A stretch of DNA of 3,334 nucleotides from Escherichia coli (GCF_003334785.1 NZ_QOWV01000051.1); one strand, 5' to 3'; numbered from the stretch's first letter, positions 352-3,334 are shown. The notes: a model not told the origin generated them from the sequence alone. Program-made: numbers and translations.

Positions 352-504
352 CTACTTAGATAACTGAGCCTTTACTGTATCTGCCCCTGCAAGCAGGAAC
401 CCAACAGTTAAGAACCACCCCCAGCCATTGATACCTTTTAGCGCTAGAATTGCTGCGCAAATGATGGCTGCTATAGGGACTATCTGGTACAGAAAATACT
501 TCAT
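352..504 (-). CDS. Hypothetical small hydrophobic protein (50 aa), possible membrane peptide
   Basis: Hand-translated ORF absent from the supplied track: ATG at 504..502 (- strand), stop TAG at 354..352. Product MKYFLYQIVPIAAIICAAILALKGINGWGWFLTVGFLLAGADTVKAQLSK has two hydrophobic segments. Weak SD-like GGGGT 7 nt upstream of the ATG; possible promoter GTGACA(561..556)-17-TCTCAT(538..533). Contains rare ATA and CTA codons. No recognisable family. Confidence 0.3.
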   Translation of the reverse strand: MKYFLYQIVPIAAIICAAILALKGINGWGWFLTVGFLLAGADTVKAQLSK

Positions 505-582
505 ATAACTTACCCCGAGGTTTTGCTTTTTTATGAGACCCTAAAGCATCGATACTGTCACTTTGATGCTTTAAGGACCTTC

Positions 583-864
583 TTAGTGATAATCCTCGAG
601 ATCCACGTCAAAGACGTTAGGTTCTTCGAGCTTAAACACTACGCGCCAGTTTCCATTGACCTCTAACGAATACTCTCCTTGACGGTCTCCCTTCAATGGA
701 TGGCAGCGCAATGCCTTTAAATCCATCATATCCTGCAAGTTCGTCGCTGTGCTTAAGGCTGTTAGGATCAGCTTCAGACGTTGAGTAAACTGTTGCGGAA
801 TTCCTGCGTTGTTACCTGTTTCGGCAAACTTACGCAAACCTTTATGCTTGATATTTATGATCAT
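583..864 (-). CDS. higB: HigB-family toxin (plasmid maintenance system killer protein, RelE/ParE superfamily mRNA interferase)
   Basis: 93-aa ORF from the track. Motifs IKHKGL..F...G....GIP, HPLKGDR.G..S..VNGNWR and C-terminal DVD.EDYH match my recollection of the HigB/killer-protein family. ATG at 864..862 with GGTG SD-like sequence 4 nt upstream; stop TAA at 585..583. Confidence 0.85.
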   Translation of the reverse strand: MIINIKHKGLRKFAETGNNAGIPQQFTQRLKLILTALSTATNLQDMMDLKALRCHPLKGDRQGEYSLEVNGNWRVVFKLEEPNVFDVDLEDYH

Positions 865-1001
865 TAATCACCATCCCATATTTGTTTAGATAGAAACATC
901 GCAGTTTATTTTTCCGGTTCATCCGTATTTCCATTGCAAACCCCTTGCTCTATTTGAATAAATGACGTAGGTTTTACTTAACCAAGTCGCATTTTAATCT
1001 G

Positions 1002-1029
1002 TTGACATTGGTTTGATGCGCTGTACAAT
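1002..1029 (+). promoter_or_regulatory. Near-consensus sigma70 promoter, rightward, presumably driving higA with a roughly 170-nt leader
   Basis: Seen in sequence: -35 TTGACA (1002..1007), 16-bp spacer, -10 TACAAT (1024..1029). Predicted start near 1036. Confidence 0.5.
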
Positions 1030-1094
1030 GCCGGGGCCTTGAATTTCACATCAAGTACCCACATCATAAGGAATGATTAGACGCACCAATGTGC

Positions 1095-1123
1095 ATCATA
1101 ATGTCATTCTTTTTTTTAGTCAA
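1095..1123 (-). promoter_or_regulatory. Near-consensus sigma70 promoter, leftward, candidate higB promoter with a roughly 220-nt leader
   Basis: Seen in sequence on the - strand: -35 TTGACT (1123..1118), 17-bp spacer, -10 TATGAT (1100..1095). Predicted start near 1087. No better promoter was found closer to the higB start codon. Confidence 0.45.
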
Positions 1124-1208
1124 CAATGAGTTGCGTTATGCGCAATGCGCAATCTGAAAACGCAATAGGCCTATCTTTTTAAAACTAATATAGGCTTCAG
1201 AGGAAGGT

Positions 1209-1505
1209 ATGATTAATCTTGTCGATCCAGTACATCCAGGGGTTTTTATCCGTGAGATGTTTATGGAACCGTTTGAAATATCAGCCGCGGACCTGTCTGA
1301 AAAACTGCATGTATCACCTTCCACTCTAAGTAGAGTGCTGAATGGAAAAGCTGATTTAAGTGTTGAGATGGCATTAAGGCTTTCTCGAGTTCTTGGTCGC
1401 AGTGCCGAGTCGTGGATAAACATGCAGACTCAATACAGTCTTAACGCGAGCAGGAAGTCACCTAATGTCATTAAGGAATTAGATGAATTGGTTCCTATAT
1501 TTTGA
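1209..1505 (+). CDS. higA: HigA-family antitoxin (XRE-type helix-turn-helix addiction module antidote protein)
   Basis: 98-aa ORF from the track. N-terminal VHPG..IRE.F.EP...S...L...L.VS...LSR.LNGK..LS.EMALRLS...G.S.ESW.N.Q..Y.L matches the HigA-family HTH pattern as I recall it. ATG at 1209 with GAGGAAGG SD immediately upstream; stop TGA 1503..1505 followed by a terminator hairpin. Confidence 0.85.
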   Translation: MINLVDPVHPGVFIREMFMEPFEISAADLSEKLHVSPSTLSRVLNGKADLSVEMALRLSRVLGRSAESWINMQTQYSLNASRKSPNVIKELDELVPIF

Positions 1506-1512
1506 GAAAAGA

Positions 1513-1537
1513 AAAGGCCGCTATATGCGGCCTTTTT
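1513..1537. terminator. Rho-independent terminator hairpin downstream of higA, flanked by A-run and T-run (bidirectional)
   Basis: Seen in sequence: stem AAGGCCGC (1513..1520) / GCGGCCTT (1527..1534), loop CTATAT, then TTT; preceded by GAAAAGAAA. Confidence 0.55.
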
Positions 1538-1542
1538 CTGTC

Positions 1543-1571
1543 TTGACTCTCAGGCAACTGGATCGTATCGT
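1543..1571 (+). promoter_or_regulatory. RNAII (preprimer) promoter of the ColE1-type replicon
   Basis: -35 TTGACT (1543..1548), 17-bp spacer, -10 TATCGT (1566..1571); start near 1578..1580. Placement matches the ColE1/p15A arrangement, where RNAII begins just outside the RNAI terminator. Confidence 0.55.
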
Positions 1572-1579
1572 TTCTCGTA

Positions 1580-1683
1580 AACGAAAAAACCACCCGGCAA
1601 GGTGGTTTTTTCGAAGGTTCAGTAACCGGCAAGTTTCTGAACCAGGGTAACTGGCTTGGAGGAGCGCAGTCACCAAAACTTGT
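1580..1683 (-). ncRNA. RNAI: RNAI antisense copy-control RNA of a ColE1/p15A-type replicon
   Basis: - strand reads ACAAGTTTTGGTGACTGCGCTCCTCCAAGCCAGTTACC...AAAAAACCACCTTGCCGGGTGGTTTTTTCGTTT, closely resembling p15A RNAI as remembered, ending in a terminator hairpin plus U-run. Ends are approximate to within a few nt. Confidence 0.7.
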
Positions 1684-1690
1684 TCTTTCA

Positions 1691-1719
1691 GTTTAGCCTT
1701 AACTGGCGCATAACTTCAA
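1691..1719 (-). promoter_or_regulatory. RNAI promoter
   Basis: - strand: -35 TTGAAG (1719..1714), 17-bp spacer, -10 CTAAAC (1696..1691), start at A (1683). Same layout as the pBR322/p15A RNAI promoter as recalled. Confidence 0.5.
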
Positions 1720-2084
1720 GACTAACTCCTCTAAATCAGTTACCAGTGGCTGCTGCCAATGGTGTTTTGCATGTCTTTCCGGGTTGGACTCAAGATGATA
1801 GTTACCGGATAAGGCGCAGCGGTCGGGCTGAACGGGGGGTTCGTGCACACAGCCCAGCTTGGAGCGAACGACCTACACTGAACCGAGATACCTACAGCGT
1901 GAGCTATGAGAAAGCGCCACGCTTCCCGAAGGGAGAAAGGCGGACAGGTATCCGGTAAGCGGCAGGGTCGGAACAGGAGAGCGCACGAGGGAGCCACCAG
2001 GGGGAAACGTCTGGTATCTTTAAGTCCTGTCGGGTTTCGCCACCTCTGACTTGAGCGTCGATTTCTGTGATGCTCGTCAGGGGG

Positions 2085-2110
2085 GCGGAGCCTATGGAAA
2101 AACGCCTGCG
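2085..2110 (+). other. Origin of replication (RNAII to DNA transition region), approximate
   Basis: GCCTATGGAAAAACGCCTGCGGCGCGG aligns with the pBR322 origin segment GCCTATGGAAAAACGCCAGCAACGCGG, where leading-strand synthesis begins. The exact switch nucleotide cannot be fixed from sequence. Confidence 0.5.
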
Positions 2111-2176
2111 GCGCGGCCTTCTTCCTGTTCTTGGTCTTTTGCTCACATGTTCTTTCCGGCCTTATCCCCTGATTCT

Positions 2177-2185
2177 GTGGATAAC
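2177..2185 (-). promoter_or_regulatory. DnaA box (TTATCCACA on the - strand) downstream of the origin
   Basis: + strand TGTGGATAA at 2177..2185 within CTGATTCTGTGGATAACCG, the same context as the DnaA box next to the pBR322 origin. Confidence 0.5.
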
Positions 2186-2289
2186 CGTGCTGCCGTTTTT
2201 GTGTAAGTCAGTACCGCTCGCCGCAGCCGAACGACCGAGCGTAGCGAGTCAGTGAGCGAGGAAGCGGAAAAGCGCCTGGACGCGCATTT

Positions 2290-2501: not shown

Positions 2502-2696
2502 TTATGTTCCTGTTTCACTTTCGGTCTCAAAGCGAACCTGGATGCTGTTCTGGAGTTCTTCCGCGAGTTCGTGCAGTCGTTCGCACATGGCCGCCTGTTC
2601 GTCGGCATCCAGAGCATCCAGTTTTTCAAGCAGTGTCAGGCTCTGGCTTTTGATAAATCGCGCCATATTCAGCGCAGTTTGTTGCTGTTTGTTCAC
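2502..2696 (-). CDS. rop: Rop/Rom (RNA one modulator) copy-number control protein
   Basis: 64-aa ORF from the track. MNKQQQTALNMARFIKSQSLTLLEKLDALDADEQAAMCERLHELAEEL aligns with pBR322 Rop (MTKQEKTALNMARFIRSQTLTLLEKLNELDADEQADICESLHDHADEL). Start is GTG at 2696..2694, as in pBR322 rop. Convergent with RNAII, as in pBR322. Confidence 0.85.
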   Translation of the reverse strand: MNKQQQTALNMARFIKSQSLTLLEKLDALDADEQAAMCERLHELAEELQNSIQVRFETESETGT

Positions 2697-3053: not shown

Positions 3054-3102
3054 AAAAAAGCGGTGTCGGCGCGGTGTTGTAGCTGCGCCAACACCGCTTT
3101 TT
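3054..3102. terminator. Long GC-rich hairpin flanked by A6 and T5: candidate bidirectional intrinsic terminator
   Basis: Seen in sequence: AAAAAAGCGGTGT (3054..3066) pairs with ACACCGCTTTTT (3091..3102); inner GGCGC (3068..3072) pairs with GCGCC (3085..3089). Could insulate the cer-like site from incoming transcription (inference). Confidence 0.5.
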
Positions 3103-3257: not shown

Positions 3258-3334
3258 TGTCCGAAAATGTGTCTCATGGGCACCGTATGCGCCCAAACCG
3301 ATCGCCATTCACTTTCATGCATAGCTATGCAGTG
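3258..3334. repeat. Terminal redundancy: exact 77-bp copy of positions 1..77, indicating a circular molecule of about 3257 bp
   Basis: Checked base by base: 3258..3334 equals 1..77. The window ends at 3334, so the match may simply be truncated there. Confidence 0.9.

Follow-up and report, generated by a model that had tools for sequence, protein, structure and literature searches.

What does the short inverted repeat between the toxin gene higB and the small open reading frame (ORF) behind it do, and does it act as DNA or as RNA? The sequence in which this question arises (Escherichia coli, NZ_QOWV01000051.1; the whole stretch analysed, 3,334 nucleotides, is hereafter called the window) is a 3257-bp circular ColE1-type plasmid plus a short wrap-around, bases 1-77 recurring at 3258-3334. 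This plasmid is identical to E. coli plasmid CP099257.1, has about 40 near-identical counterparts from E. coli, E. fergusonii, Salmonella and Shigella, and is carried by 26 of 5426 complete E. coli genomes (~0.5%). Its PGAP annotation consists only of rop (2502-2696, minus strand), higA (1209-1505, plus strand; a helix-turn-helix protein, TIGR02607, E = 7e-28) and higB (583-864, minus strand; 93 aa, Pfam HigB-like_toxin PF05015, E = 6e-15). The cistron downstream of higB, a small ORF of 50 codons at 352-504 on the minus strand (start codon 504-502), is not called by PGAP. A preliminary description of the locus had rightly placed the repeat between the higB stop codon (585-583, minus) and this ORF (504-352, minus). 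Our literature search found no paper on the higB-downstream region of this plasmid, and an Rfam search of the window with E up to 1 returned only RNAI (1581-1681, minus strand) and weak matches at 1506-1880, with none at 500-620.

Several other features of the plasmid can be recorded here. The RefSeq entry NZ_CP033853.1 carries, at 929-1041 (about 2050-2170 of the window), a frameshifted 'replication initiation protein' pseudogene annotated within the ColE1 RNAII/origin region, which is probably an annotation artefact. The strongest inverted repeat of the plasmid, at 3055-3102, has 18-nt arms (AAAAAGCGGTGTCGGCGC and GCGCCAACACCGCTTTTT) with A-runs and T-runs outside them, and looks like a bidirectional terminator in a region that has no annotated gene. 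Positions 174-203 read GGTGCGCGTAA-TGCGACG-TTATGGTAAAT and resemble the XerC/XerD core site of ColE1 cer, GGTGCGTACAA-TTAAGGGA-TTATGGTAAAT; this is probably the multimer-resolution site.

The repeat downstream of higB consists of two 12-nt arms, CCCTAAAGCATC at 539-550 and GATGCTTTAAGG at 565-576, which are 92% complementary (one mismatch) and lie 14 nt apart; they enclose a perfect 9-bp core, TAAAGCATC (542-550) with GATGCTTTA (565-573), three pairs of which are G-C. Of the 9-bp inverted repeat first proposed at 542-571, the repeat itself and its left arm (542-550) stand, while the right arm had been set three bases off, at 562-571 instead of 565-573, and the loop is 14 nt long, not about 12. 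Read as minus-strand RNA, which is the sense of higB, the stem extends over 15 positions (579-565 with 550-536, G.U pairs and one U.U included): 12 contiguous pairs are followed by the U.U mismatch and then by two more pairs (G-C and G.U), and the plus-strand mismatch C541.A574 becomes a U.G wobble. The 5' arm of this sense hairpin is GGUCCUUAAAGCAUC (565-579, with 565-576 as core arm), its loop is AAAGUGACAGUAUC (551-564), and its 3' arm is GAUGCUUUAGGGUCU (536-550, with 539-550 as core arm). The lone hairpin has a predicted folding energy of -17.0 kcal/mol as sense RNA (z = -4.9 against shuffles) and of -14.8 kcal/mol as plus-strand RNA, and its 101-nt context one of -27.6 kcal/mol (z = -3.8). 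When the plasmid was shuffled with its dinucleotides preserved, 13% of the shuffles gave a perfect 9-bp repeat whose loop measured 3-20 nt (mean 0.2 per shuffle), so that the repeat by itself is not significant.

Comparison with diverged copies of the region gives it a different weight. These copies include the Enterobacter mori plasmid pHSW1412-2, 83% identical over window positions 371-2272; PLSDB, searched in distant mode, yielded one diverged plasmid. Metagenome contigs L004-L008 were reached via protein relatives of the small ORF, and loci L017-L022 via a degenerate DNA pattern for its N-terminus, which found five metagenome loci and one genome locus, all from the same plasmid group. Contig L004 belongs to the E. 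mori-type lineage. The resulting set comprises four independent lineages and minor variants, with 84-92% pairwise identity, and was compared in a five-sequence alignment of 1.2 kb.

Positions 541-573 form an invariant run of 33 nt, the second longest in this alignment. Variable intergenic columns number 0/33 in the hairpin core and 18/48 in the flanking spacers (Fisher p = 1.9e-5), both of which also carry indels; for the loop only, the corresponding figures are 0/14 and 13/37 (p = 0.011). Because the core is invariant between variable spacers, the hairpin, loop included, is under purifying selection. Each of the four independent lineages (five aligned sequences) has it 3-8 nt past the higB stop and about 35 nt ahead of the AUG of the small ORF, on the strand of both genes. 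On this comparison it is the conservation, and not the repeat alone, that makes the element notable, and among the sequences recovered only one small plasmid group has the hairpin. Viral contigs gave five matches to the stem and one to the loop, all of them in unrelated sequence.

The few substitutions that do affect the stem fall in its outer part and bear on the question of strand. At pair 10 of the sense RNA the window has U.G, and L021, the E. mori type and L007 all have C-G; at pair 11 the E. mori type has U-A, a compensatory change, and the window, L021 and L007 have C-G; at pair 12 L007 has U.G, and the window, L021 and the E. mori type have C-G. The pairing-preserving outer-stem changes thus comprise one compensatory and two wobble substitutions, and two of the outer-stem changes are A.C mismatches when read on the other strand or as duplex symmetry. 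In the four-lineage comparison, paired cells make up 96.7% for the sense RNA and 83.3% for the antisense RNA. This outer-stem variation favours a sense-strand RNA hairpin, on thin evidence, the asymmetry resting on two C-to-U transitions with a chance p of roughly 0.25. With four independent lineages and one compensatory pair, the covariation score is matched by 130 of 500 shuffles and is for that reason not significant. The invariant 14-nt loop is not accounted for by a purely structural role. A search elsewhere on the plasmid for a loop partner, of pseudoknot or kissing-loop type, gave, beyond the strand opposite the loop itself, only complementary matches of up to 7 nt, those of 7 nt being scattered.

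The nature of the downstream cistron matters for any interpretation. Its product, MKYFLYQIVPIAAIICAAILALKGINGWGWFLTVGFLLAGADTVKAQLSK, is 50 aa long and has two hydrophobic segments and an invariant GWGWFL motif. Variants across lineages comprise 38 synonymous and 14 non-synonymous changes, and by this measure the ORF is a genuine gene under purifying selection. A profile search recovered 113 cluster representatives (E < 1e-3), two-segment membrane proteins of 35-80 aa in which a (D/S)GWGWFL motif is invariant; there is a weak PHROG match, phrog_14810 (E about 1e-5), to a group of unassigned function, and searches of Pfam and NCBIfam with the small protein gave no match. Synonymous variation is unevenly distributed along the gene, with 4 variants in codons 1-15 (461-504, minus strand) versus 38 in codons 16-50, which suggests an RNA-level constraint on the initiation region. 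A second hairpin is predicted over codons 2-10 (477-499, minus strand) and coincides with the suppressed synonymous change. The more remote relatives of the small protein are encoded in packed gene arrays of a phage-like kind, and the hairpin behind higB is absent from all these distant relatives. Since it is missing from relatives with other arrangements, the hairpin is specific to loci where the small gene stands behind higB.

In some members of the plasmid group, the region beyond the small ORF has a further peculiarity. Contigs L004 (395-676) and L008 (1424-1708) and the E. mori plasmid (L003) carry four tandem units of about 63 bp directly beyond a strong terminator located behind the small ORF, and gene callers read these repeats as a 93-aa repeat protein. 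The window lacks them, and its homology to these plasmids stops near position 371, inside the 3' end of the small ORF.

RNAalifold, applied to the sense strand, encloses the hairpin in an outer helix formed by AUCUCGAGG (602-594), which covers the last codons of higB, and CCUCGGGGU (520-512), the Shine-Dalgarno region of the small ORF, in which GGGGU stands 7 nt before the AUG; both strands of the helix lie on the minus strand of the window. The helix has 9 pairs, two of them G.U, and the pair adjacent to it is U-A, C-G or U.G in different lineages. Of six higB-linked variants, four have it in their minimum-free-energy structure; in the remaining two, the structure with the helix enforced comes within 1.1-1.3 kcal/mol of the minimum. 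Its ensemble probability is 0.09-0.14 in L019 and L007, the former having a G-to-A change that breaks one outer-helix pair. The two strands of the helix could also be conserved independently of each other, the 5' strand as coding sequence and the 3' strand as Shine-Dalgarno sequence.

From the predicted outer helix and from the early small-ORF structure with its suppressed synonymous change we arrive at the reading that we tentatively prefer, at somewhat less than even confidence. It holds that the repeat is an intercistronic mRNA hairpin forming the core of a fold that masks the Shine-Dalgarno sequence of the small ORF, so coupling and limiting its translation, and that perhaps serves as a decay barrier. 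The repeat would act as RNA and not as DNA, as a 12-15-bp hairpin in a bicistronic minus-strand mRNA. That mRNA would start at a promoter upstream of higB, cross higB and enter the 50-codon membrane-protein gene; the best candidate for such a higB-to-small-ORF promoter, and the nearest good one on the minus strand, is TTGACT-17-TATGAT at 1095-1123 (minus strand, 10/12). The hairpin would be a rigid core, closing off 44 nt and allowing the last higB codons to meet and pair with the Shine-Dalgarno region of the small ORF. With this region paired in the predicted outer helix, the ribosome-binding site of the small ORF would be masked, to be opened mainly when a ribosome reaches the end of higB, that is, by translational coupling through unmasking. 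Masking of this kind in vivo would keep the membrane protein low and tie its synthesis to the translation of higB. The same hairpin is probably also a barrier to 3'-exonucleases or a landmark for processing, in which case the higB and small-ORF segments of the message may differ in lifetime. In so far as the preliminary description had proposed an RNA processing or stability element, it came close to what we consider the best-supported reading of the locus.

Intercistronic stem-loops that set differential expression are familiar from the colicin lysis-gene hairpin, the malE-malF REP hairpins and the processing of papB-papA, and two features of that kind are found here, namely co-directional cistrons with no promoter or terminator between them and a stable hairpin that is kept in the sense RNA. 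The hairpin of the cea-cei-cel operon of ColE7 is similar in being a stable structure between co-directional cistrons on a ColE1-type plasmid, and also in the small envelope protein encoded downstream, the level of which presumably has to stay low. A published report documents that the colicin lysis gene is controlled post-transcriptionally (PMC2896534). The differences are that the colicin T1 hairpin is a partial terminator, which the present hairpin, having no U-tract, is not; that the loop here has no GGA motif for CsrA; and that the small protein, unlike the lysis lipoprotein, has no lipobox, its Cys being Ser in other lineages.

Translational coupling by unmasking is known from the coat, lysis and replicase genes of the RNA phage MS2 and from the infC-rpmI-rplT operon. 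In such cases the ribosome-binding site is paired with the end of the upstream cistron, and the helix predicted here joins a last segment of higB, on the scale of 9 nt, to the Shine-Dalgarno sequence of the small ORF; the two segments are complementary on the plasmid. An intervening hairpin likewise shortens the loop, and the helix is thermodynamically favoured in most variants. The plasmid differs in that one natural variant weakens the helix and in that both of its strands are otherwise constrained. The mRNAs of type I toxins (hok, tisB, zorO) offer a third comparison, as intramolecular structure in them holds back translation of a small hydrophobic toxin until the mRNA has undergone processing, according to a published account (PMC11228461). 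The locus shares with them a hydrophobic ORF of about 50 aa, a structured and highly conserved leader and early coding region, and a predicted masked Shine-Dalgarno sequence. It differs in that no antisense RNA gene was detected on the plasmid, in that the ORF would stand in an operon behind a type II toxin gene, and in that the small-protein family occurs in phage gene arrays.

Rho-independent terminators resemble the element in that they too are inverted repeats directly after a stop codon. The preliminary description had already held that this is not a classic intrinsic terminator and that no T-run follows the repeat on either strand, and both statements are borne out by the sequence and by a terminator scan that has no site here. 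An intrinsic terminator was rejected on the ground that neither strand has a T-run (at least 5 of 8; the sequence after the stem is TCTCATAAAAAAGC on the sense strand and ACCTTCTTAG on the plus strand), that the loop is 14 nt long as against 3-8 nt, and that the stem is AU-rich. By what was found, then, the hairpin does not belong with terminators, with promoters, with operators (by location and half-site recurrence) or with type I loci (no antisense gene). The element fits the intercistronic mRNA stem-loop kind; it is an ordinary post-transcriptional element and challenges no current ideas.

The alternative that survives best keeps the RNA hairpin and dispenses with masking. The hairpin would then be purely an mRNA stability or processing element, through an RNase E cut in the AU-rich loop, an RNase III cut in the stem or a stop to 3'-exonucleases, leaving a stable higB segment and a scarcer small-ORF segment; we consider this possible, if rather unlikely. 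The position and conservation of the hairpin fit it as well as they fit the masking fold, an invariant loop suits recognition better than a mere structural clamp, and all variants are predicted to form the hairpin, but not all of them have the outer helix in their minimum-free-energy structure. A typical RNase III site is longer than the 12-15-bp stem found here, which speaks against cleavage of that kind. As for RNase E, the loop AAAGUGACAGUAUC includes ACAGUAU, the 7-mer core of the standard RNase E oligonucleotide substrate UUUACAGUAUUUG (PMC7284133). The match is short, and RNase E sites are degenerate, so that 14 invariant bases exceed the need of such a site; we regard the motif as a lead for a processing role and not as evidence.

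It is improbable, in our estimation, that the repeat instead works as a DNA palindrome, bound by HigA, by the HigB-HigA complex or by a host factor and acting as an operator or as a roadblock between the genes. The perfect 9-bp arms, the conservation of both arms together with the spacer, and the presence on the plasmid of a gene for the helix-turn-helix protein HigA would all suit such a site. The repeat lies 3' of higB, however, some 520-590 bp from the predicted promoters (1002-1029 and 1123-1095) and not in the control region. The half-site CTAAAGCATC has no copy at up to two mismatches in 865-1208, its count over the plasmid (6 versus 3.5 expected) is not above chance, and the plasmid holds no further copy with fewer than two mismatches; the palindromes present in that control region have unrelated sequences. 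For the operators of helix-turn-helix dimers, a spacer of 14 bp (23 bp from centre to centre) is atypical. The outer-arm changes of two lineages, moreover, are mismatches in a duplex palindrome and wobbles in the sense RNA. The protein-binding site has nothing specific in its favour.

Mobile elements have entered this junction at least in two plasmids. In the Salmonella Hadar plasmid NZ_CP022068.1, a Tn3 carrying blaTEM-1 sits inside the right arm of the repeat, with the target duplication TTTAA (570-574; loci L002 3230-3240 and L034 110-125); it parts higB from the hairpin remnant and the small ORF, and bla points toward the latter. In L004 (1-110), an IS5-like element (ISKpn26 family) ends against CTAA where the higB stop is located, directly 5' of the hairpin, and is a second independent insertion at the higB/hairpin junction. 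This contig had been a candidate for a hairpin and small ORF standing behind a different gene, which was rejected, as the upstream DNA is the end of the IS5-like element. Both of these insertions between higB and the hairpin are tolerated, so that uninterrupted coupling is not essential for plasmid survival.

The same insertions can be cited for the idea, in our view very improbable, that the repeat has no function of its own at this place, being either a chance palindrome kept by low divergence or hitch-hiking, or a single-stranded-DNA hairpin for replication, transfer or recombination. The frequency of such repeats in shuffled plasmid sequence, and the fact that all carriers form one closely related plasmid group, point the same way. 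Against this stands the island of complete conservation between variable, indel-bearing spacers, at the significance given above. Genes for a Rep or Mob protein are missing from the plasmid, and about 1.6 kb separates the site from the ColE1 origin region. The targets of Tn3 (TTTAA) and of the IS5-like element (CTAA), for their part, are ordinary AT-rich or consensus targets.

We give still less credence to the proposal that the repeat is the 3' hairpin of a plus-strand antisense RNA over the ribosome-binding site of the small ORF, in the manner of a type I toxin-antitoxin system with the hydrophobic 50-aa protein as toxin. Codons 1-15 and the leader do show unusually strong nucleotide conservation, as if an antisense gene overlapped them, and the plus strand after the hairpin, ACCTTCTT(T), is weakly T-rich. 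This T-run falls short of that of a terminator, however, and the 14-nt loop is unlike those of intrinsic terminators; no plus-strand promoter of at least 9/12 is present in 352-540, and a relaxed scan gave only non-conserved 7/12 matches; two lineages would have A.C mismatches in the stem of an antisense RNA; and relatives of the small protein lie in packed phage gene arrays and not in stand-alone toxin loci.

Least probable of all is the suggestion of the preliminary description that the repeat overlaps the -35 element of a dedicated small-ORF promoter: the sense-strand loop holds GTGACA (5/6 to TTGACA) and the small gene of distant relatives has its own promoter region, but TCTCAT or GCTCAT, 17 nt past GTGACA, has no key A at -11, a consensus scan finds no promoter-like site of at least 9/12 on either strand in 348-1002, and a relaxed scan of five variants (the four independent lineages and L004) gives only sense-strand matches of 7-8/12 that are not conserved or would place the start of transcription at or after the ATG.

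The recurrence of the GWGWFL family beside higBA and the divergent arrangement of higB and higA are more interesting than the hairpin itself. On the plasmid, higB (minus strand) and higA (plus strand) diverge from a control region at 865-1208, which is unusual for a type II toxin-antitoxin pair. Besides the minus-strand candidate described above, this region contains a plus-strand promoter match, TTGACA-16-TACAAT (1002-1029, 11/12), and both are conserved in the 83%-identical E. mori plasmid. As these two best promoters face each other, their 5' leaders would overlap in antisense over about 50 nt (about 1036-1088).

The control region has some further sequence features. An 8-bp inverted pair, ACATTGGT (1005-1012) and ACCAATGT (1085-1092), flanks the facing promoters. 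Within the higA leader, AAGGAATGATTA (1068-1079) nearly duplicates the ribosome-binding site and start of higA, AAGGTATGATTA (1204-1215); this first copy would open an upstream ORF of 18 codons, ATGATTAGACGC...TGA.

The closer among the distant relatives of the small protein are encoded beside higB-higA pairs on Rop-type plasmids, where HigB and HigA are only 27-29% identical to the present pair. There the small gene and a canonical higB-higA operon point away from each other and have one control region in common. Loci at which the small gene recurs with higBA are L012 (900-2130) and L013-L016; the order is small ORF <- higB <- / -> higA in the window (352-1505) and higA <- higB <- / -> small ORF in L013. 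The higA gene and the small gene are in effect swapped around one shared control region, and the three genes may form a unit. Because the small gene adjoins the promoter region shared with higBA in distant relatives, co-regulation with higB is a recurring theme. A bolder version of the coupling would make the hairpin and its invariant loop a specific recognition site that ties the GWGWFL membrane protein, as a third component, to HigBA. Synthesis of this protein would be switched when the toxin is translated or active, or by a dedicated partner (RNA-binding or an RNase), and the locus would be a tripartite toxin-antitoxin-membrane-effector module with coupling at the RNA level. This we regard as speculative and very improbable.

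In practical terms, the hairpin draws attention to a gene behind higB that is clearly selected though unannotated, and to the way in which this gene is probably expressed. If the model of coupling by a masking fold is true, the small membrane protein would be made in proportion to the translation of HigB, and this would be the first functional clue to a nameless family of small proteins, found in phages and plasmids, for which Pfam has no entry.
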